Of a stretch of DNA of 64,000 nucleotides, positions 36,708-46,970 are shown piece by piece. A program made the position numbers and the translations under genes. The notes under the pieces are model-generated. The model was not told the origin of the DNA and did no database searches. It worked only from the letters and a program-made list of their open reading frames with translations. The stretch comes from a phage: sequence record PZ295659.1; one strand, given 5' to 3'. Numbering within the stretch: position 1 is the first letter of the stretch; the number at the start of each line of letters is the position of its first letter.

Positions 36708-37001
36708 TTATTTACGGAATGAAAGGAATGCTGGTGCTCGGAATGGAGTATCATCTTTAGAGTATTTAACTAATACGACCATTGGCACCTCTGTTTCTAA
36801 ATGACCTGTCACTACACCGACAAAAATTTGATCAGTGTGCTCAGGGTCACGAAAGTTTTTAAGAGGTTCCATAGCAATATGGAATGCACCTGGGAATACT
36901 CGATTCAATTCGTCAATCACAGCTTCGTTAAAAGCATCATCCGCTGGGATAACATCTTCAACTACTAGTTCTTGACCATTAAAGCGAAGCATAGATTTCA
37001 T
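36708..37001 (-). CDS. hypothetical protein (97 aa, alt.-1-like)
   Basis: Start moved to an internal ATG preceded by a GAGGAAAA RBS so it no longer overlaps alt; own early promoter upstream. Confidence 0.4.
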   Translation of the reverse strand: MKSMLRFNGQELVVEDVIPADDAFNEAVIDELNRVFPGAFHIAMEPLKNFRDPEHTDQIFVGVVTGHLETEVPMVVLVKYSKDDTPFRAPAFLSFRK

Positions 37002-37030
37002 AACGTTTTCCTCATGTTGTTGATGGGATG

Positions 37031-37060
37031 ATAGTATCACACATCCATGTGTTTGTAAAC
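37031..37060 (-). promoter_or_regulatory. early promoter (GTTTAC-N18-TACTAT)
   Basis: Minus strand reads GTTTACAAACACATGGATGTGTGATACTAT, between the alt stop and the downstream ORF. Confidence 0.5.
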
Positions 37061-39147
37061 TATCCTTGGACAAATTTAAACGGAACTGATTCTAAATCCA
37101 TTAAAGATGCTAACAATTTCAATCCTTTAGGAGCACTAGTTTTTTCTACAAATGAGGAGAACGATATCGGCTCATCTGATTCGATTTCACCCGTCATAGC
37201 AACCACCTCACCTGTTTCCATGAGAACATCACCGTCGTAAATGACAGCTTCGTCCAACTGGTCTGAGGACATGACTTCAGCTTGAATAAATTTAAGGTTG
37301 GATTCTAAACCTGCACCAGTGTCAGATGACGCATCTGTAATTTTATTTATCTGCAAGAGAATGCCTCTAGGCAAAATAATTTCTTGCTCATTAGGGTGAT
37401 TACTCAACTGTCCAGGATAAATCACGTTAACTTTATGGGCGCCATCAATAGCCCATCCAACGTTAACACGGATTTGGTCTGGTGCATGCATAGCTGTTCT
37501 TACTTGACTAGGAGAAATAGTAACACCTTCGTCATTATTGTCAATGTTAAGCTCTTTGCGAACTTCTTCAGGAGCAAGTCCAAGGGCAACGTTCTCTTTA
37601 AACCCACCGAAAATAATAGGAGCTAGTGAAGTGGAAACATAGTTTCTGAAGTAGAATACCTTATTTTTAACCATTGCTTCGTAAATAGGCATTCTGATAG
37701 ACTGAGCTCTATATAACGTTAGTCCTTCAGGTAAACGGTCTCCATTTAAAAACGCTGAATCAAGACCATCAATAGCGCGTTTAACTTCATCTTCATCTGC
37801 AACATCGTAAAAATCTGGTTTATAACGACCTAACAGCATATTATTGATATCGGTATACGCAGAAGAGGCATATTCACGAATAGCTCGTTTTTCAGCAACA
37901 GAGTATTGATTAGGGACCCGATTCATTGTTATATTAAAGGTGCCTCTAGCCGATTCTCGTGCATAAGTATACATCACATTAGACAAGAACGCTGATTTAC
38001 GTTGTTTCCAAGTTTTTTCAGATACTTCAGCTAAAACGTCGTCAGCCAGTTGGAAATTATCACGTCTAAAATCTTCAAACCATTCGTCTTTAATAGAGTC
38101 GGCAATTTCATTTGCAGCTTCAACAAAAGCAGTTAATGCTTTAACAGATGTTGTTTTTTCAGTTTTAATTTTCTTAGCAAACTTTTCTAAAGTTGGCTTA
38201 ATAACACTACCATAAGAAACTTCATCAGCAAATCTAAAGGATTCATCAATACGATTATAAATCTTATTTTCGATATCAGCAACTAAAGTGCCTTTTGCTG
38301 TGGACGATGCTTGGGCTAGTACGATTTCATATGCTTCAGGAAGTAATTCGGCTGTAGCTGGGCCACTAACTTCTTTAGCAGAATTTTCGTATTTCTGGAA
38401 TAACTCACCTTCTTGTCGGTCAGCTTCTAAAGATTGACTTGCTGCAATAGCACGACGAGAAATTTTAGTACGAGCAATAACAGGCTTATCTTTACGTTTT
38501 TCTTCTACAGCAGCAATAGAACCAGCGATAGCCGTTTCTTTGGTGACCTTTTCGCCAGTCTTTTTACTCACATAAACTTCGCCAACATCAGAATCTACTT
38601 TCGTGTACAACTCTGTGTTAATGTTAGGGATGCCTTTAATATCTTCAATGTTGGCATTTTTACGAACCATCATCACATAGGTGTGTTTACCTGTGAATTG
38701 ATACATTGCCGACAATACTTTAAAACGACCACCGGTTTTAGTAGAAACTAAACGAGCAAGAAGAGTTTGAAGCTGCTGTCCGCGTCCTTTCAATTTCTTG
38801 GTAGGGAATCGGAATAGAACTGCATCCATACGAAGAGCTTTAACCTGTTCATATACTGTATTGAAAATGGTGTTGATTGCATCAATAGGAGCAGGACCAA
38901 GGCCATTTTTCAATTCAGCGAGATTGCCCTTTTCAGATAGACTCATAATAACAACATGAGCGTATTTGTCGCCAAGTTTAACTTGTTTTACAGCATCACC
39001 TTCGGAAAGGTAAGAGAATAAGCGAACTACGATGTTTGTATCGATATCACCAATTTTCCAGACTTGTGGAACTTTAGCTTTAGGGTTCAAATTGACGACA
39101 GGAAGACTGCCTTCAGATTCAAACACTTCATTTAATTGTTCAGACAT
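37060..39147 (-). CDS. alt: Alt ADP-ribosyltransferase (capsid-packaged, modifies host RNA polymerase)
   Basis: 695 aa (T4 Alt 682 aa); arginine-specific ART triad in order: Arg in TLYRAQS, S-T-S in NYVSTSLAP, E-x-E in NEQEIILPRG. Confidence 0.85.
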   Translation of the reverse strand: MSEQLNEVFESEGSLPVVNLNPKAKVPQVWKIGDIDTNIVVRLFSYLSEGDAVKQVKLGDKYAHVVIMSLSEKGNLAELKNGLGPAPIDAINTIFNTVYEQVKALRMDAVLFRFPTKKLKGRGQQLQTLLARLVSTKTGGRFKVLSAMYQFTGKHTYVMMVRKNANIEDIKGIPNINTELYTKVDSDVGEVYVSKKTGEKVTKETAIAGSIAAVEEKRKDKPVIARTKISRRAIAASQSLEADRQEGELFQKYENSAKEVSGPATAELLPEAYEIVLAQASSTAKGTLVADIENKIYNRIDESFRFADEVSYGSVIKPTLEKFAKKIKTEKTTSVKALTAFVEAANEIADSIKDEWFEDFRRDNFQLADDVLAEVSEKTWKQRKSAFLSNVMYTYARESARGTFNITMNRVPNQYSVAEKRAIREYASSAYTDINNMLLGRYKPDFYDVADEDEVKRAIDGLDSAFLNGDRLPEGLTLYRAQSIRMPIYEAMVKNKVFYFRNYVSTSLAPIIFGGFKENVALGLAPEEVRKELNIDNNDEGVTISPSQVRTAMHAPDQIRVNVGWAIDGAHKVNVIYPGQLSNHPNEQEIILPRGILLQINKITDASSDTGAGLESNLKFIQAEVMSSDQLDEAVIYDGDVLMETGEVVAMTGEIESDEPISFSSFVEKTSAPKGLKLLASLMDLESVPFKFVQG

Positions 39148-39182
39148 AGTGTTTTCCTTTTAGTAATAATTTATATTTATGC

Positions 39183-39200
39183 CAAAAAGAGCCCGAAGGC
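39183..39200 (-). terminator. AAGAGCC-UUCG-GGCUCUU hairpin upstream of alt
   Basis: Perfect 7-bp stem with UUCG loop on the minus strand between the small ORF and alt. Confidence 0.5.
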
Positions 39201-39202
39201 TC

Positions 39203-39391
39203 TTAATCCACAATCGGGAGCAAAGTACGATAAACTTCAAAATTAGGGCCTTTTTCGTACCCATTAACGTTATCTACGAAAACCCGATACGAATTTTCAT
39301 TAGGAAAATCTAATATAATCTGAGAGCAAGAGGTGGAAACATCTCCACCATCCTTCTTAGCTACAATAACTGTTTCTAAATAAGCTTTCAT
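39203..39391 (-). CDS. hypothetical small protein (62 aa)
   Basis: ATG overlapping the gp30 stop codon (TAATG coupling); start moved from the track's upstream in-frame codon. Confidence 0.4.
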   Translation of the reverse strand: MKAYLETVIVAKKDGGDVSTSCSQIILDFPNENSYRVFVDNVNGYEKGPNFEVYRTLLPIVD

Positions 39392-40884
39392 TATAAACCT
39401 GTCTGGGACCACGGTCCAAATACGTCTTCAAATGAATCCGCTTCTGTTTTATCAAAACGGAACCCTTTAATAATTGGAAGGAAAATACCTACAGTGCCTT
39501 CACGGCCTTTAGAATGAACCCAACCATTACATTCACAATCAGCGATACGTCCGATTAATTTACCTTCACGAGCTTCGGTCATTAATCGTTCACGGTCTAA
39601 ATCATGACGCTCGTCTAAAGGAATAAGAACCTTTACACCGTCAACTGTTTTATGAGTTGTATCTTTAAACCCTGAACCACAATCGGTTGTAATACGACGA
39701 CAACGTGATACGAGTTCGACACCACCTAATTTGTTAGGGTCTTTAGAATGTTCATAGTATCCTACAACTTCTAAAGCGATATCAATAACTTCTTTAAATT
39801 TAATTAGGTTCTTAGAGCGTTTGTTTTCCCAATATGAATCACGGTTTTTAAGGATAATACCTTCAAGACCTTGGTCAACATATTTTTTATAAACCACTTT
39901 AGCTTCGTCAAGATTACGAACTAACTGATTTTCAATTGGCTCAATTCGCTTAAAGCCTTCAGCCATATTTTCAAGAGCAGCAAAACGAACATCGTATTTC
40001 TGACCTTTAATTTTGCCATCAGAATAGACTTCATCTAAAGGAATATAGTCCCAGGCTTGAAGAACCATACCTTCCGCTTCTTTAGGAGAAATAGTCCCTT
40101 GAAGAGATTTATTTGCTAAACCATTTGAAGTGCTACGGTCTGCAACCTGTACTTCTTCGGATTCTTCATTATCACCAAATAAGAACGACAGGTCATTTCC
40201 TGAGCTCACAGCCTTTTTAATATCGAATGAATGATAAACTAATTCACCGTCGATTAAAACCCCATTAGGGTGTCTTTCACGAGCTTCTTTAGTCATTTCC
40301 ATTAGTTCATCAGCTAATAGAGTAAGACCGTGGTATTCGTTACCAGCACGAGAAAAGAATTGAACACCATCATCGCGAACTTCAGCGAAACAACGAGCAC
40401 CATCTGCTTTTAATTGGGCAAATGCGGGCCATTTAATATTTTTAGTAATCAATTTCTCATCATATGCAGATGCTAACATCTGTGGTTGCAATTGAATAAG
40501 TCCAGGCCACACCTTATTCGCGATAGACACTGAAGCACCTACTTCAAGGTCGCGCATCATTACACGACGAAGGACTTCTACATCATCAGGTTTACCGTCA
40601 GCGATATAACCCATGAGCTCTTTAATTGCAGCATTACCAGTGAGTTTACGAGTGGCTAATGTGAACTCAATAAAATCCAACATGTCATCTAATTCAAGAA
40701 GTCCATATGCTTGAGACCTTTCACCCGGTCCAGGCCATTTCTTAATATAATACTGGATACCACGTGCATATGTTAAACGATACACACGTTCAAGTAATTT
40801 GTTGTCCTTATTTTTCTTAAGGATTTCTTGTTTTGTTTTAGTAGAACCGATCGCAGCTATTTGGTTTAAAATATCTAAAATCAT
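39391..40884 (-). CDS. 30: ATP-dependent DNA ligase gp30
   Basis: 497 aa (T4 ligase 487 aa); adenylation motif I KADGARC. Confidence 0.9.
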   Translation of the reverse strand: MILDILNQIAAIGSTKTKQEILKKNKDNKLLERVYRLTYARGIQYYIKKWPGPGERSQAYGLLELDDMLDFIEFTLATRKLTGNAAIKELMGYIADGKPDDVEVLRRVMMRDLEVGASVSIANKVWPGLIQLQPQMLASAYDEKLITKNIKWPAFAQLKADGARCFAEVRDDGVQFFSRAGNEYHGLTLLADELMEMTKEARERHPNGVLIDGELVYHSFDIKKAVSSGNDLSFLFGDNEESEEVQVADRSTSNGLANKSLQGTISPKEAEGMVLQAWDYIPLDEVYSDGKIKGQKYDVRFAALENMAEGFKRIEPIENQLVRNLDEAKVVYKKYVDQGLEGIILKNRDSYWENKRSKNLIKFKEVIDIALEVVGYYEHSKDPNKLGGVELVSRCRRITTDCGSGFKDTTHKTVDGVKVLIPLDERHDLDRERLMTEAREGKLIGRIADCECNGWVHSKGREGTVGIFLPIIKGFRFDKTEADSFEDVFGPWSQTGL

Positions 40885-41150
40885 TTGATGTCCTCGATTT
40901 TGGTTACGGTTCTATTATAAGCCACTTCATCTAGAAGCGATTTCAGCGTTTTCTGATAAGTGGTAACCCATTTACCAAGTCCTTCAACATAATATTCTGA
41001 AATGTAGATGAACCCTTGTTCAACACACTCTTTAAATATTTCTGCGTCTTTTACTGAACGAAACATTGGCCAGTCTCGAAAGAACATGTTAACGTGACCG
41101 TAGTCACGCGTTGTGTTTTTGCCATCTGTAATATCATGAACTACAAACAT
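40881..41150 (-). CDS. hypothetical protein (30.1-like)
   Basis: 89-aa ORF translationally coupled upstream of the ligase gene; synteny with the T4 30.x cluster. Confidence 0.5.
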   Translation of the reverse strand: MFVVHDITDGKNTTRDYGHVNMFFRDWPMFRSVKDAEIFKECVEQGFIYISEYYVEGLGKWVTTYQKTLKSLLDEVAYNRTVTKIEDIK

Positions 41151-41159
41151 AATTAACCC

Positions 41160-41975
41160 TTAACAATTTGTAGACCAAGTCCATTTGGACGAATCTAAAG
41201 GAAAGTTTTGAATCGTCCACCACGGCTGCATATCGGTTGGTCCTGGGGTTCGCCAGGTACATGGATTCGACGGACCGCCAATTTGATTAGGCCATGCGCC
41301 TGGACTTGTTGTACCAGATTCTTTAAGCAAATCAGCCAATCGTTTTAAAAGGTCTTCACGATCTGAATCTGAATTATGCTCGGGTGGAACCAAACGAGAT
41401 TCAATATCATCCCACGTGTGTACACGTTGTGCAGTACGAGGAATGGCATCACGTTCACCACGAGCCAACCAATAAATCGGTACATTAAGAATTTCTGCTG
41501 CATGGTCACAGTGATGAGCTAAATCGTCAACGTAACAAATCACGTTATATTTTGTTTTAGCTAGTTCGAATAATTGTTCCTTTGAAGAATCATGACCACA
41601 CATCATTACTTCAGAGAAAGCGCCTGGGAACAAAGCATTCAAATTAAATTGTCTATTCAATCGAGCATCAATTGAATCACCTAGCGCCGTCACGGCTACA
41701 AAATTATAGTCTTCTTTTATTTTATTGATAACTCGAAGAGCATCCGAATAAGGCGCTAAGTAACGAATAAAATCAGAGCTATTATATTTTTCTATTAATT
41801 GTTTACCGAGGTTATCGTCGGTATTGAATAGTTTACCAGGAGAAATAAATTTTTCGTCCTGAATCATTTTTAAAATATGTTCTAACGGAAGATTATATTT
41901 TTGGGCAAAATAAGGAAGTCCAGATTGCCAACTTAAACATACACCATCAATATCGGTCAAAATAGTAGGCTTCAT
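41160..41975 (-). CDS. HAD-like phosphatase-fold protein with W/P-rich C-terminal tail (30.2-like)
   Basis: N-terminal DxDG motif (LTDIDGV) and downstream YVDD resemble the HAD superfamily; 271 aa. Confidence 0.5.
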   Translation of the reverse strand: MKPTILTDIDGVCLSWQSGLPYFAQKYNLPLEHILKMIQDEKFISPGKLFNTDDNLGKQLIEKYNSSDFIRYLAPYSDALRVINKIKEDYNFVAVTALGDSIDARLNRQFNLNALFPGAFSEVMMCGHDSSKEQLFELAKTKYNVICYVDDLAHHCDHAAEILNVPIYWLARGERDAIPRTAQRVHTWDDIESRLVPPEHNSDSDREDLLKRLADLLKESGTTSPGAWPNQIGGPSNPCTWRTPGPTDMQPWWTIQNFPLDSSKWTWSTNC

Positions 41976-42424
41976 AAAGAGTCTCTTAATAGGTTTAACA
42001 CATCAATAAATTCAGCTTCGGTTAGTATTGTATCATCTTTTGTTAGGTGGCTGGCCATGCTGTGCTTCAAAACTTTTCCTTTCGAGGCTTGTAATGCATC
42101 ACGAAAGCCCCTGTTTTGGATCGCTGCTTCAAAATATGCATTTGTGTATAATTCTTTCCACGCCGGAGAGTATCTTGAAAACGGAACTCCAAGCCAGAAG
42201 AGGGTCCCACGGTCCTGAGCTCTAGCATAAGCTCGTCCAGCTTGTTGGGCGGCAAGCCCGGATAACCCAAATATACGTTTTTGTTGTTCAACATTTTTCA
42301 CCTTACATCCTTGGAGAAATCCTTCAAGTCCTCCGAATTGAATACCATCCATAACAAAAGGCCATTGAGCAAAGTTACTTAATGCACATGACGGCCATGG
42401 AAAATTGCTTCTGATTTCAATCAT
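41972..42424 (-). CDS. NADAR / YbiA-like (DUF1768) domain protein (30.3-like)
   Basis: LSNFAQWPFVMDG...EGFLQGCK matches the YbiA/NADAR signature FSNFAAWP..VDG...EHYFQA.K as recalled. Confidence 0.55.
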   Translation of the reverse strand: MIEIRSNFPWPSCALSNFAQWPFVMDGIQFGGLEGFLQGCKVKNVEQQKRIFGLSGLAAQQAGRAYARAQDRGTLFWLGVPFSRYSPAWKELYTNAYFEAAIQNRGFRDALQASKGKVLKHSMASHLTKDDTILTEAEFIDVLNLLRDSL

Positions 42425-42615
42425 AGTCTTTTAAGGCTTTTGATAATTTCTAATTCAGAACTCATGCGAACGTCTTCAGTTCCATCGACCCATAGGACGG
42501 TGTAGGCTTCTTTAATTTGAGTATTACCTAATTTAAAAGCAGGTAGAACCTTGGAAATCATTCCAGGAATACCTATACCTTTTAACTGGACTGTTTGTGA
42601 TAAGAATAGTTGCAT
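42421..42615 (-). CDS. hypothetical protein (64 aa)
   Basis: ORF in the coupled 30.x operon (ATGA overlaps on both sides). Confidence 0.4.
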   Translation of the reverse strand: MQLFLSQTVQLKGIGIPGMISKVLPAFKLGNTQIKEAYTVLWVDGTEDVRMSSELEIIKSLKRL

Positions 42616-42902
42616 TAGAACCTCATCTGAAAGCCGTGCGATTTAACATTACCACCATAGATGTCAGAGGTATTGACTTCACGGGCGACACTTGGGTCGA
42701 TATTGATGTCACAGTTGAGCTTAGTGATTGCCAGGGTATCACGTTCATTAACAGTACGGAATTCTACCGGGCATACAACATCAGCATAAGCCTTAATAGA
42801 TTCACGAGTAGGTTGTTTGTCGGCAGGAACATCTTTACCAGCTTTAGAGAAAACAACTTCACAGAAATTTTTACGAGTATCAAAATAAGTGGTCATAAAC
42901 AT
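42615..42902 (-). CDS. hypothetical protein (95 aa)
   Basis: ORF downstream of a UUCG terminator hairpin and an upstream gene; no motif recognised. Confidence 0.45.
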   Translation of the reverse strand: MFMTTYFDTRKNFCEVVFSKAGKDVPADKQPTRESIKAYADVVCPVEFRTVNERDTLAITKLNCDINIDPSVAREVNTSDIYGGNVKSHGFQMRF

Positions 42903-42917
42903 AATATTTTCCTAAAA

Positions 42918-42933
42918 GGAGGCCGAAGCCTCC
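42918..42933 (-). terminator. GGAGGC-UUCG-GCCUCC hairpin
   Basis: On the minus strand the hairpin follows the stop of ORF 42944-43309 and is followed by UUUUAGG. Confidence 0.5.
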
Positions 42934-42943
42934 ATTTTTAAGA

Positions 42944-43309
42944 TTAGATATCAAATTCGTTAAGAACTACATCAAAGATTGCTTCGAGATGTTCAGGTTT
43001 AGCTCGGTTGCTCAGGATGTGACGAATCCAAGTTTTAACCAGAAGTTTACGATTAACACCGTTCCAGCAAGGATGAGTACCTAAATCACGTTGACGGAAA
43101 TCGTCATCTAATGCAATTTTGAAGTTGGAACCTTCCATCGTGATTGAAACCGTGATGCCATTTTCAAATCGCATATAAACGTAATTAGGAGTCATATACT
43201 GCTCAATTTCGCATACTGAACCGTTATTATGCTTCCATAAGCAAATTGTATCGATAGAACCAGCAATACCGTTAGAAACATATTTACGTTCGAAGTTGAT
43301 GTAGTTCAT
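42944..43309 (-). CDS. hypothetical early protein (121 aa)
   Basis: Own early promoter; translation initiation region GGAGAATAAAATGAAC identical to that of the next gene. Confidence 0.5.
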   Translation of the reverse strand: MNYINFERKYVSNGIAGSIDTICLWKHNNGSVCEIEQYMTPNYVYMRFENGITVSITMEGSNFKIALDDDFRQRDLGTHPCWNGVNRKLLVKTWIRHILSNRAKPEHLEAIFDVVLNEFDI

Positions 43310-43350
43310 TTTATTCTCCAGATGTTTAAGTTGTTTGTTGGTACAGGTCT

Positions 43351-43379
43351 ATAATAACAAAACCTGTACCAAAGTAAAC
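43351..43379 (-). promoter_or_regulatory. early promoter (GTTTAC-N17-TATTAT)
   Basis: Minus strand reads GTTTACTTTGGTACAGGTTTTGTTATTAT, upstream of ORF 42944-43309. Confidence 0.5.
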
Positions 43380-43383
43380 ATTT

Positions 43384-43755
43384 TTATTTGATTTTTGTCC
43401 ACTTAGCTGAATCAATAACACCTTTTGCTTTAATCTTCTCGATTAATGACTCTGCACGATTTCTGGCATTTTCATACCATACAACATCTTCAGAGTAACC
43501 TGTTTCTTCATCTTCGTAAGTTTTAGAACGAATACAACCATAAACTGTAGAATTCAGACGGTAAATTTCACCAGTGAAAAAGTTTTCGATTTCGATATGA
43601 TAACAAAAATCGTCTGAAGGGCCATCAGGAGTTGTACAATAAACTACATCACCTTGAATCGAACGAACCATCCACTGTAACTCGTTAACAACTTGAGATT
43701 TATATCCATCGTGGTCACGGCATTTAATTGTAGCATTTAAATTGATAGTGTTCAT
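43384..43755 (-). CDS. hypothetical early protein (123 aa)
   Basis: Own early promoter and the same RBS-start cassette as its neighbour; several Cys residues. Confidence 0.5.
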   Translation of the reverse strand: MNTINLNATIKCRDHDGYKSQVVNELQWMVRSIQGDVVYCTTPDGPSDDFCYHIEIENFFTGEIYRLNSTVYGCIRSKTYEDEETGYSEDVVWYENARNRAESLIEKIKAKGVIDSAKWTKIK

Positions 43756-43797
43756 TTTATTCTCCGGTTGTTTTTATTGATTAGGTGGTACAAGTCT

Positions 43798-43826
43798 ATA
43801 GTAACACATCCTACAGGAGAGTAAAC
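43798..43826 (-). promoter_or_regulatory. early promoter (GTTTAC-N17-TACTAT)
   Basis: Minus strand reads GTTTACTCTCCTGTAGGATGTGTTACTAT, upstream of ORF 43384-43755. Confidence 0.5.
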
Positions 43827-43863
43827 ATCTTTTTTAAACTTTTTCTGCCCTAAACGCACAAAA

Positions 43864-43881
43864 GGGAGACCGAAGTCTCCC
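43864..43881 (-). terminator. GGGAGAC-UUCG-GUCUCCC hairpin terminator
   Basis: Third copy of the identical 18-mer hairpin, 5 nt after the stop of the 59-aa ORF and followed by a U-run on the minus strand. Confidence 0.6.
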
Positions 43882-43886
43882 TAAAA

Positions 43887-44066
43887 TTATGCAACAACCT
43901 TTCCAAAACGAGAAGCATCATCTCGAAGAACTGCACGTGCTCTGCGCATGATCTTCTCAACGGTTTGATTAATACGAGAGTTCGACCCACGCTTGTATCC
44001 AGCGCGTTTAGAGGTACCATCAACTTTCTTTTCTACTGCTTTCTTTGCTTTAGCTTGTTTTGCCAT
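43887..44066 (-). CDS. small basic protein (59 aa), absent from the ORF track
   Basis: Hand-translated MAKQAKAKKAVEKKVDGTSKRAGYKRGSNSRINQTVEKIMRRARAVLRDDASRFGKVVA; terminator hairpin immediately downstream. Confidence 0.45.
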   Translation of the reverse strand: MAKQAKAKKAVEKKVDGTSKRAGYKRGSNSRINQTVEKIMRRARAVLRDDASRFGKVVA

Positions 44067-44285
44067 TATAAATTCTCTTTAAATGAAAATGCAGGACTTA
44101 TTGACATTGCCTGCCCAAGCCCTCAAGGGGAACATAGGTTTTTGGATATTTAACGACAGGATAACCATAAACCCGTCATCATACCGACCACGACTTAGAC
44201 AGATAACCTTTTTCTGACGCGTGATAGTACAAAATACATTCAAGAGGTACACCGTAAAATTGTCGGGGCGGTACTTCTAAAACAT

Positions 44286-44303
44286 ATCGATTCGCAAATC
44301 GAT
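44286..44303 (-). terminator. perfect palindromic hairpin downstream of rIII
   Basis: AUCGAUU-loop-AAUCGAU 7-bp stem about 33 nt after the rIII stop; no clear U-tract. Confidence 0.35.
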
Positions 44304-44335
44304 AATCAGACAATTCGACGGCTCCTCGATTTAAC

Positions 44336-44584
44336 TTACTTCAGGGTAATAACAAAATGACGAACTGCTTTACGTGCTGCAGAAGCCAGAGGCTTAGCAT
44401 ATTTCAATTCATCTTTCTGAACCAGGATATCGCGAAGATCGGCTTGTGCTGGATTCAGATGTTTGAAATACTGTAAGATTTCAAGAGCTTCGGCTTCAAC
44501 ATCAATAGATGCGCCGTAATTGTCATGGCCATTATTCCATGCATGGCGTTGCAGTTCAAGAGCGTGTTGTAATTGTTTAATCAT
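44336..44584 (-). CDS. rIII: rIII lysis inhibition accessory protein
   Basis: 82 aa, same as T4 RIII; located just downstream of gene 31 on the same strand as in T4. Confidence 0.65.
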   Translation of the reverse strand: MIKQLQHALELQRHAWNNGHDNYGASIDVEAEALEILQYFKHLNPAQADLRDILVQKDELKYAKPLASAARKAVRHFVITLK

Positions 44585-44700
44585 TTTAAATTCTCAATTC
44601 GAGATAATACTTAGTAGCCACGTTCTTCTGAATTTCACTTTCTTTCGACAAGTCTCTCAGTTGTAGGCTACCGCTTAGAAGAGTGTTCTCTTCATATAGT

Positions 44701-44708
44701 TATTTATA
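44701..44708 (-). promoter_or_regulatory. late promoter TATAAATA (minus strand) between gene 31 and rIII
   Basis: Plus-strand TATTTATA immediately after the gp31 stop. Confidence 0.4.
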
Positions 44709-45041
44709 TCACTTATAAAGACATGGAATAGCTTTATAGTGGCATGTTACGAATTTCTGTTTAATTTCTTTAGGTTGTTTAAGACCTAAAGCCACAAATG
44801 GATGTGGAACATTTCGAATTTGTCCAACCGGTAGTGGAGTCAAATCACCGACTTCAACAAAACCTTCAGGAACATCAGGACCTACAGAATGAACTACACA
44901 TAGTTCAGGAACTTCACCTTGAACACGTTTACCAATCACAAGTCCTGATTCTGTAACTTCTTCATCACCCGCTTGAGCGGGTTCAGAAACCAGAATGACA
45001 TATTCACCAACAGCACGAATTGGGAGTTGTACTTCAGACAT
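44709..45041 (-). CDS. 31: head assembly co-chaperonin gp31 (GroES analogue)
   Basis: 110 aa (T4 gp31 111 aa); synteny next to cd; middle promoter upstream. Confidence 0.85.
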
Positions 45042-45071
45042 CTTATTTCCTTGTTGTTTGACGATAGATTA

Positions 45072-45096
45072 ATAATACCATACTATTCGTAAAGCA
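45072..45096 (-). promoter_or_regulatory. middle promoter (MotA box TGCTTTA + TATTAT) for gene 31
   Basis: Minus strand reads TGCTTTACGAATAGTATGGTATTAT with a 12-nt spacer, 30-55 nt upstream of the gp31 ATG. Confidence 0.55.
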
Positions 45097-45098
45097 TA

Positions 45099-45395
45099 TT
45101 ACATAAGAAGCAAACTTTCCACCGGAGTACCATCAACCGAAATTACTTTATCAAGGCGGAAAGAACGCCACTGACCTAACTTGGTGTCGAATGCTCGAAC
45201 TGATTCACGAGGTTCATAACGAACTTCTGTTGCTGGATTGTTATTTTCATATTTGACTTCAAGTTCATCGCGCGAAGCAAACATAGTGCGTACCTCGCCG
45301 TTAGCCTTTTCAAATACAACACAATGAACGCCTACAGATAGAATAGTTTTAATACGTTCACGAAGAACCATAGTTTCTTGTTCAGTTAAAATCAT
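45099..45395 (-). CDS. hypothetical protein (98 aa, 31.1-like)
   Basis: Start moved to the ATG 2 nt after the cd stop; the track start is a GTG inside cd. Confidence 0.5.
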   Translation of the reverse strand: MILTEQETMVLRERIKTILSVGVHCVVFEKANGEVRTMFASRDELEVKYENNNPATEVRYEPRESVRAFDTKLGQWRSFRLDKVISVDGTPVESLLLM

Positions 45396-45396
45396 A

Positions 45397-45978
45397 TTAT
45401 TCACCACAAAAGTTTCGGATTTGTTCCCAATTCAGAGAACGAAGATTATTACGAGAGTACTGAATTACTTCAATACCGGCTTGTTTTAGAATGTCTGCCC
45501 AATTTTCAGGAGATCTGTCATATAATTCTGCGTATACAACCTTTTTAATACCTGACTGCGTAATAGCTTTAGTGCAATCAGGACATGGAGAAAGCGTCGT
45601 ATATAACGTAGCACCTTCAATAGAATTACCTTTACGAGCTGCAAACAAAATTGCATTCAATTCTGCATGGATTTCATTATTAGCAGACCATGCACTATGA
45701 GCGGCCCGATGTTCTTTAGCCAAAACAAAATTATCTGCCCGTCCAAATGCTGTAGTGCCTTCTTTATGTCCAGCAACGATGACCGGGCTTGGTTTATTCT
45801 TCAACCAACCGTTTTCGGATGCATGTTCGCAACAGTTTGTACCACCTGAAGGAGAGCCATTATAACCTGTAGAAATAATGCGTCCATCTTTTTCAATGAC
45901 TGCGCCAACTTTCCATGAACAACATTTTGATTCTTGAGAAATCAGATATGCAATCTGAAGGTATGTGCTAGCTTTCAT
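45397..45978 (-). CDS. cd: dCMP deaminase
   Basis: 193 aa, same as T4 Cd; zinc-binding cytidine/deoxycytidylate deaminase motifs HAELNAI and PCPDC. Confidence 0.9.
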   Translation of the reverse strand: MKASTYLQIAYLISQESKCCSWKVGAVIEKDGRIISTGYNGSPSGGTNCCEHASENGWLKNKPSPVIVAGHKEGTTAFGRADNFVLAKEHRAAHSAWSANNEIHAELNAILFAARKGNSIEGATLYTTLSPCPDCTKAITQSGIKKVVYAELYDRSPENWADILKQAGIEVIQYSRNNLRSLNWEQIRNFCGE

Positions 45979-46970
45979 TATTGAACCTTATTAATATAAG
46001 TTAACAGCTCTTTAGTTTGTTCCCAACTGATGCACGCATCGGTAATGGAAACGCCATAGGACATATTATCAGAAATTTTTTGATTTCCTTCATGTAGGAA
46101 TGATTCTATCATAATTCCTTTGACCAAATCATTAGCTGCTAAATTTTTACCAATACCAATTTGATTGCTATAATGCCCATCAGCGTTTGCATGGCTACAG
46201 TCAACCATTACATAATGATTCAGACCTACTGCACTTGCTTTGTTAGAAGCTTCTTGAATATCAGAAGAATGATAGTTCGGGCCGTTGGTCCCGCCACGCA
46301 ATACGATATGCGTATTCTGATTACCTTCAGCTTCAACAATGCCTATAGTACCATCGACGTCCATACCCATATACCGATGAGGCCAGGCGGCACTATACAT
46401 CGCGTCTGTAGCTACTTTAATAGAACCATTGGTTGCGTTCTTGAAGCCTACGCACATCGGTAGACCTGAAGCAATTTCACGATGTGTCTGACTTTCAGTC
46501 GTACGGGCGCCAATAGCAACCCATGAGAAAATACCAGAAAGATACTTAATCGTGAATGGGTCTAATACTTCAGTTGCTAATGGAAGTCCCATACGTAGAA
46601 GTTTACGACACAATGTTCGTGCAACTATAAGACCGTGGTTCATATCAAAACTTCCGTCAAGATATGGATCATTTACAAGACCTTTCCAACCTACGGTAGT
46701 TCGAGGCTTTTCAAAATAAACGCGCATCACTAACAGAACATTAGGAAGACGAGTTTGAAGTTCAGCCAGACGTTTGCCGTATTCAACAGCAGCAATAGGG
46801 TCATGAATTGAACAAGGACCTACAACAATAAGTTTGCGTGGGTCTTCACCGTTCATAATCGAATTAACTTGTTCGCGATGAGAAGCCACTTGTGATGCGT
46901 AAGCTTCCGACAAAGGAATAATCTCAGCCAGTTCTTTTGGAGAAATAAGTTTTCTGACGATAGGTAACAT
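45978..46970 (-). CDS. 3-deoxy-D-arabino-heptulosonate-7-phosphate (DAHP) synthase, class I AroG/AroF/AroH-like
   Basis: 330 aa aligning along its length with E. coli AroG as recalled: KLIVVGPCSIHDP, MRVYFEKPRTTVGWKGL, SWVAIGARTTESQTHRE, GFKNATNGSIKVA, IVLRGG, MVDCSHAN, ESFLHEGNQ, SITDACISWE. Confidence 0.85.
   Translation of the reverse strand: MLPIVRKLISPKELAEIIPLSEAYASQVASHREQVNSIMNGEDPRKLIVVGPCSIHDPIAAVEYGKRLAELQTRLPNVLLVMRVYFEKPRTTVGWKGLVNDPYLDGSFDMNHGLIVARTLCRKLLRMGLPLATEVLDPFTIKYLSGIFSWVAIGARTTESQTHREIASGLPMCVGFKNATNGSIKVATDAMYSAAWPHRYMGMDVDGTIGIVEAEGNQNTHIVLRGGTNGPNYHSSDIQEASNKASAVGLNHYVMVDCSHANADGHYSNQIGIGKNLAANDLVKGIMIESFLHEGNQKISDNMSYGVSITDACISWEQTKELLTYINKVQ

Follow-up and report, generated by a model that had tools for sequence, protein, structure and literature searches.

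Does a phage of the T4 type that encodes a small NADAR-like protein use it to remove ADP-ribose from DNA and, if so, which ADP-ribosylating system does it counter? The question is raised by an open reading frame of 150 codons with an ATG start, located at 41972..42424 on the minus strand of the window, the whole stretch of 64,000 nucleotides of phage DNA that was analysed (PZ295659.1). An original prediction, made from the sequence alone, had described the product as a NADAR/YbiA-like protein, had proposed that it counters DarT-type ADP-ribosylation by the host, and had linked it to the ADP-ribosyltransferase Alt encoded nearby. We conclude that the ORF is, with high probability, the Mosigvirus orthologue of T4 adfN (gene 30.3) and encodes a DNA ADP-ribosylglycohydrolase directed against DarTG1. 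This function is already published, and the window gene adds no discovery to it; in fact, it was predicted by bioinformatics in 2012 (de Souza and Aravind, as reported in the papers that cite it) and again in 2022, followed by the in vitro proof in 2024 (PMC11125620) and by the genetic proof in 2025 (PMC11825919), when T4 gp30.3 was renamed AdfN, for anti-DarT factor NADAR (Johannesman et al., Nat Commun 2025). The annotation is nevertheless of value, as the gene still carries the label 'hypothetical protein' in most of the related GenBank records.

The 30.3 locus and its gene order

The start of adfN is unambiguous, an in-frame stop being present three codons upstream, and the coding sequence was annotated as that of a NADAR-fold DNA ADP-ribosylglycohydrolase of the gp30.3 subfamily from the ORF itself, the Pfam family PF08010, the identity to T4 and RB32, an AlphaFold2 model and its fold matches. 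On the minus strand the order of the genes is 30.3, 30.2 (41160-41975), 30.1 (40881-41150), the ligase gene 30 (39391-40884) and alt (37060-39147), with a small alt.1-like ORF between the last two. The distance of 'two operon positions' between adfN and alt given in the original prediction must be corrected, as three annotated genes, plus the alt.1-like ORF, lie in between. Two ATGA overlaps delimit the gene on the minus strand: one, read from the sequence, joins the stop of the 30.5-like gene to the start of adfN (42421..42424), and the other, also found in T4 and RB32, joins the stop of adfN to the start of 30.2 (41972..41975) and suggests that adfN and 30.2 may be translationally coupled. 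Judging from the T4 gene order, transcription of adfN would proceed from the minus strand as part of the 30.x cluster, with its translation coupled to that of its neighbours. The early expression of 30.3 is known from T4; in the window, a promoter and terminator scan of positions 36800-45200 was uninformative, as the 27 promoter-like sites that it detected are close to the 24.6 expected. C(UUCG)G tetraloop hairpins are a classic feature of T4 mRNAs, and the window contains ten perfect ones (stems of 5-8 bp), where shuffled sequences would give 0.1; those at 43863-43882, 42918-42933 and 39187-39204 lie on the same strand as the 30.x genes (minus), in or beside intergenic gaps of the cluster.

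The DNA surrounding adfN is 96-97% identical to that of several coliphages, and the closest annotated relative is phage SF, a member of Mosigvirus, the genus of RB69. The RefSeq record of SF (NC_055749.1) has no CDS at 30.3, yet an intact adfN of 152 aa is encoded there (L009:3977-4423). The slot of the gene, directly upstream of 30.2 and then of the ligase gene, agrees with the order in T4, RB32, RB69 and SF, and the agreement of the 30.x order is looser in straboviruses of Acinetobacter, Aeromonas and Klebsiella; the succession of 30.3, 30.2 and ligase is itself retained in Acinetobacter phage Konradin, Aeromonas phage Aeh1 and a Klebsiella Slopekvirus; in phages of Vibrio, Tenacibaculum and Agrobacterium, no 30.2 was found up to 5 kb from the 30.3 homologue. 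The T4 gene belongs to a Tequatrovirus genome and that of the window to a Mosigvirus genome, but the two share this slot as well as the catalytic Glu and Lys, the His and the C-terminal helix discussed below.

Gene 30.4 is missing in the window and adfN starts two codons later than in T4; it is because of the absence of 30.4 that the protein is two residues shorter at the N-terminus (MIEIR here, MSELEIR in T4). The same arrangement lacking 30.4 occurs in several independent isolates (vB_VIPECOMC06, AV112/113, RPN187 and ST2), and 30.4 is kept in SF, PHB12 and the NHEP phages. The sole ORF between 30.6 and 30.3 is a 30.5 homologue of 64 aa (42421-42615), 66% identical to that of T4. Elsewhere on the minus strand, directly after the dCMP deaminase gene, the window encodes a DAHP synthase (phospho-2-dehydro-3-deoxyheptonate aldolase; 330 aa, 45978-46970; PHROG 5045, E=5e-182), which is annotated in SF, while RB69 has cd.2 in that place, and which appears to be an auxiliary metabolic gene for making aromatic amino acids.

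Family membership, fold and active site

Searched against Pfam with hmmscan, the protein matches PF08010 (Phage_30_3, 'Bacteriophage protein GP30.3') with E=1.2e-69 and 232.9 bits (cutoff 36). For the NADAR model, PF08719, the single sequence gave no match at E<=1 and did not reach the gathering threshold; the search of NCBIfam gave no match, and in PHROGs the protein is placed in phrog_652, a family without assigned function whose profile is 296 positions long. A phmmer search of the single sequence against the PDB returned only an N-type ATP pyrophosphatase (E=0.24), which was discarded as spurious. The missing PF08719 match was not taken to refute NADAR membership, as it is an artefact of the separate curation of gp30.3 in Pfam, and the evidence from the fold and from profile-profile comparison is strong. 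A deep HMM search recovered 1,383 representatives at 50% identity (E<=0.001), and 64 diverse single-domain members were aligned; PF08010 is matched by all 64 and PF08719 also by ten of them (best E=1.1e-4), so that the two models are linked by sequence. The profile check that had been proposed for this protein was thus negative for the single sequence and positive for ten members of its family. Some gp30.3-family proteins are tandem duplications, in which the family matches two stretches of a protein of about 290 aa or, in one case, three of a protein of 480 aa, and others are fused to further domains, reaching up to 559 aa (P0023, P0024, P0025, P0028, P0045 and P0116); the homologue of Tenacibaculum phage pT24 lies inside a CDS of 292 aa (L007:5004-5882).

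When family profiles were compared with 177,635 PDB sequences, YbiA (2b3w) was the best match and the sole one below E=0.4 (E=0.0068 and 0.0015), and the alignment covers the motif from which the original prediction had been made. BLASTP against YbiA of E. coli K-12 (NC_000913.3) aligns residues 15-64 with YbiA 29-79 at E=2e-5, beyond chance, pairing LSNFAQWPFVMDG...EGFLQGCK in the window with FSNFAAWPIKVDG...EHYFQAQK in YbiA, and hhalign extends the alignment of the 64-member profile with YbiA to 136 columns, nearly the whole protein (94.9% probability, E=4.8e-8). An AlphaFold2 model built from nine sequences has a mean pLDDT of 83 and a pTM of 0.81, with lower values, pLDDT 49-64, in residues 1-20; it shows an alpha+beta fold, in which two small beta-sheets flank a helical core, and can be superposed on NADAR structures that have been solved, and the top three matches of a fold search made with it are NADAR structures. 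The protein is therefore a member of the NADAR superfamily, as had been predicted, and belongs to a separately curated phage gp30.3 subfamily that lies outside the PF08719 model; the fold searches, hhalign and the link to PF08719 through family members all agree on this point.

In the 64-member alignment N17, E34, H121 and T135 are invariant, and K41 and R84 nearly so. The N-terminal NADAR motif is formed by Glu34 and, seven residues on, Lys41, and both hhalign and BLASTP pair these residues with E48 and K55 of YbiA. Glu34 (codon 42323..42325, minus strand; GAA, ttc on the plus strand) corresponds also to E36 of T4 AdfN and E43 of PnNADAR and is the catalytic residue in contact with the distal ribose; Lys41 (codon 42302..42304, minus strand), equivalent to K43 of T4 AdfN and K50 of PnNADAR, is pyrophosphate-binding and is conserved in 91% of the members. 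In PnNADAR, E43, K50 and E125 were named in the study in which NADAR structures were solved and the hydrolysis of guanine-ADPr was described (Schuller et al., 2023, PMC11543638). In the last strand, the acidic residue that is Glu in the YbiA family and Asp in the BC4488/DarG1 family is not found in the window protein, which has His121 instead (codon 42062..42064, minus strand), a residue that marks the phage, gp30.3-type NADARs; in the literature, His in place of this Glu is treated as a signature of the phage subgroup and not as a ground for exclusion. hhalign places H121 in the LVEH strand of YbiA with an ambiguity of one residue, a one-residue gap pairing it with H126 and the gap-free register with E125. 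The catalytic residues whose presence was to be checked are thus in place, together with the phage-type histidine. The C-terminal alpha-helix, residues 136-150 (41975..42019, minus strand; 136-149 in the model), lies within the last 19 residues, which are identical to those of T4, and is required for full activity, as truncated T4 AdfN is impaired (PMC11825919).

YbiA being the best match in both structure and sequence, the protein could be read as a YbiA-like housekeeping N-glycosidase acting on reactive intermediates of the riboflavin pathway, which we consider extremely improbable. E. coli YbiA (2B3W), the founding member of NADAR/DUF1768, is indeed a housekeeping N-glycosidase of riboflavin intermediates, encoded in a LexA-controlled operon, but it is only about 20% identical to the window protein, it contains a DAYWGDGG segment that the latter lacks, and Glu125, the residue that defines the YbiA family, is replaced by His in the phage clade. 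Moreover, in the published phylogeny the closest neighbours of the gp30.3 proteins are antitoxins of the DarG1 type rather than YbiA, and the phenotype of the gene is one of anti-defence.

Over its full length the protein is 95% identical to T4 gp30.3 and 97% identical to RB32 gp30.3; a tblastn match to T4 that seemed limited to residues 2-142 was an artefact of the low-complexity filter, and the unfiltered match runs to residue 150. There are eight differences from T4, all at variable columns: the two residues missing from the N-terminus and six substitutions, namely Pro9 (R11 in T4), Lys49 (R51), Ala65 (S67), Arg105 (K107), Met123 (I125) and His126 (G128). A much more severe change is known in RB69, whose sensitivity to DarTG1 was attributed to a one-base insertion that makes the protein 15 residues shorter (PMC11825919). 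We confirmed this lesion in the sequence, where an extra T changes ...TILTEAEF... into ...TILT* and the last 15 residues, with the C-terminal helix, are lost. RB69 gp30.3 is in this respect a natural loss-of-function allele, in a phage that shares with the window the genus and the flanking genes and whose gene, like that of SF, is of the same type as the 5' part of the window gene; the frameshift is absent from the window allele, in which the reading frame is intact. Orthology, the open frame, the fold and the conservation of the catalytic residues are, therefore, properties of the window allele itself.

The RB69 truncation demonstrates that small changes can disable the protein, and the window allele might in turn be functionally weakened, giving only partial protection, the loss of 30.4 having reshaped its start and an internal tract having made it a hybrid; the MIEIR terminus, Pro9 and the intragenic mosaic described below are in line with this possibility. 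We judge it very unlikely, since the changes in the window allele all fall at poorly conserved columns, the start varies among the family members, Pro is the commonest residue at position 9, and the arrangement without 30.4 has been kept in independent isolates. The preferred reading, that of an active adfN orthologue, meets some points that speak against it: the shorter N-terminus and Pro9 fall in the region that the model predicts with low confidence, PF08719 is not reached by the single sequence, and the register of His121 is ambiguous.

Probable action against DarTG1 and the neighbourhood of alt

For the T4 protein, enzymatic activity and both necessity and sufficiency against DarTG1 have been proven (PMC11825919). 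The resistance of T2 and T4 to DarTG1 was mapped to gene 30.3; deletion of adfN makes both phages sensitive to DarTG1, but not to DarTG2; RB69 is rescued by ectopic expression of adfN; the E36A and K43A mutants of T4 AdfN are impaired, and the purified protein de-ADP-ribosylates DNA (PMC11825919). No interaction between AdfN and DarT1 was detected in the same study, and AdfN therefore acts on the lesion and not on the toxin. In vitro, T4 gp30.3 removes ADP-ribose from guanine and not from thymidine (Toxins 2024, PMC11125620), and AdfN is without effect on DarTG2, whose toxin modifies thymidine (PMC11825919), so that the specificity for guanine-ADPr identifies DarTG1 as its target. The methods of PMC11125620 describe the 'T4 phage NADAR (gp30.3)' construct as residues 1-208, against the 152 aa of T4 gp30.3 in AF158101. 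The removal of ADP-ribose from guanine that had been suggested as an in vitro check is, in this way, already on record for the T4 protein, and the proposed role in countering DarT-type modification of DNA holds, for the 95%-identical orthologue, against DarTG1 and not against DarTG2.

Given this 95% identity, the window allele would be expected to hydrolyse guanine-ADPr on DNA and to be needed against DarTG1, as proven for the T4 and T2 proteins. In the mechanism that we propose, the DarT1 toxin of the host would ADP-ribosylate guanines of the phage DNA, blocking replication; AdfN, by analogy with the T4 enzyme, would hydrolyse the N-glycosidic bond between ADP-ribose and guanine in an active site probably composed of Glu34, Lys41 and the phage-specific His121; removal of the modification would restore replication and allow plaques to form on DarTG1 hosts. 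If the window allele is active, the phage should be resistant to DarTG1, unlike its genus-mate RB69, and the intact adfN would predict plaquing on E. coli carrying DarTG1, which bears on the choice of therapeutic phages.

The mechanism is incomplete in one respect, since the full activity of T4 AdfN is confined to infection by T-even phages. T4 gp30.3 fails to rescue cells from DarT1 (PMC11125620), and T4 AdfN gives no protection to uninfected cells and only weak protection to T5 and Bas25, for which its authors suspect a potentiating factor encoded by T-even phages. Rescue of cells from DarT, one of the checks suggested beforehand, was hence negative for the T4 protein in two studies, whereas the other, the sensitivity of a deletion phage, was positive for DarTG1. 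DarG1 differs in this regard: the antitoxins of the BC4488 family (G. lovleyi 8BAT, E. coli C7) are encoded beside their toxin and neutralise DarT1 in uninfected cells, and they have a positively charged N-terminal extension and Asp where the phage proteins have His. AdfN-Bas32 of a T5-like phage and AdfN-Bas60 of a member of the Vequintavirinae, phage orphan NADARs acting against DarTG1 and not DarTG2, represent other, independently acquired clades of NADARs, and are active without a context specific to T-even phages.

The gene alt lies 2.8 kb downstream of adfN on the same strand, and such proximity could indicate that the main role of AdfN is in ADP-ribose chemistry made by the phage itself, i.e., reversal or editing of the modifications by Alt, ModA and ModB, or in the degradation of soluble immune signals derived from ADP-ribose, the repair of DarT1 lesions being secondary. 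However, in Konradin and Aeh1 alt and the 30.3 cluster are on opposite strands, and in phages of Vibrio, Tenacibaculum and Agrobacterium no alt was found in the 5 kb to either side of the 30.3 homologue. A functional link drawn from adjacency was accordingly rejected, also in view of the genes that separate the two, and the connection to Alt made in the original prediction finds no support: the proximity is a matter of general T4-type synteny, with no conserved operon link. In addition, T4 Alt modifies arginine in proteins, whereas the NADARs tested so far act on guanine-ADPr. Iyer et al. (2022, PMC9503650) had earlier noted that the NADAR genes of T4-like phages are expressed early, together with ADP-ribosyltransferases (ARTs), and that phage NADARs may favour low-molecular-weight ADPr derivatives, and the authors of the AdfN study proposed that other defences based on ADP-ribosylation may likewise be detoxified by factors of this kind. 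Against these arguments, the phenotype of the adfN deletion is specific to DarTG1 (PMC11825919), and in a T4 transposon screen (10.1101/2025.11.20.689424) adfN is conditionally essential on DarTG1 and dispensable on K-12. On balance, we regard a main role in phage-made ADP-ribose chemistry as unlikely and retain that of an anti-DarTG1 glycohydrolase.

gp30.2 and a T4-type tract within adfN

The product of the gene that follows adfN, gp30.2 (271 aa, 41160-41975, minus strand), starts with MKPTILTDIDGV, which contains a HAD-type DxD motif (DIDG); its matches to HAD_2 (E=0.053) and to a 5'(3')-deoxyribonucleotidase, 2jao (E=0.15), are below threshold and non-significant, and its conservation in distant straboviruses is limited to roughly the first 195 residues. 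That gp30.2 might be a cofactor of AdfN is a speculation, and it is weakened by the transposon screen, which, in the part of its report consulted, names adfN alone as a DarTG1 hit.

The 5' part of adfN and its interior have different affinities. Among 26 diagnostic sites, defined as positions at which T4 and RB32 are identical and both differ from RB69 and SF, 18 consecutive ones, at coding positions 162-352, are of the T4/RB32 type, and the gene is of the Mosigvirus type at 33-108 and 449. The Tequatrovirus-type tract extends at least over 42073..42263 on the minus strand (bounds 41977-42316). The flanking proteins are less T4-like than AdfN, with identities of 64% for the ligase, 57% for 30.1, 69-74% for 30.2 and 38% for 30.8. 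This pattern of sites indicates a probable intragenic recombination tract in an otherwise Mosigvirus-type gene, and is consistent with exchange between co-infecting T-even phages, a process that the authors of the AdfN study exploited experimentally. The tract is the only, and minor, novelty of this gene, and offers a small natural example of the recombinational swapping of counter-defence alleles. Two further ideas, independent of each other, can be formulated here: that the T-even potentiating factor is gp30.2, or that the tract is a natural gene conversion of adfN under DarTG1 selection; we consider this pair quite unlikely.

Inside adfN, and within the T4-type tract, the counterpart of T4 30.3' is present as an overlapping ORF of 75 aa in the +1 frame (42067-42294, minus strand). 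The frame is open in the window and in T4, and is broken by a stop codon in RB69 and SF; this poor conservation argues against a conserved coding role for 30.3'.
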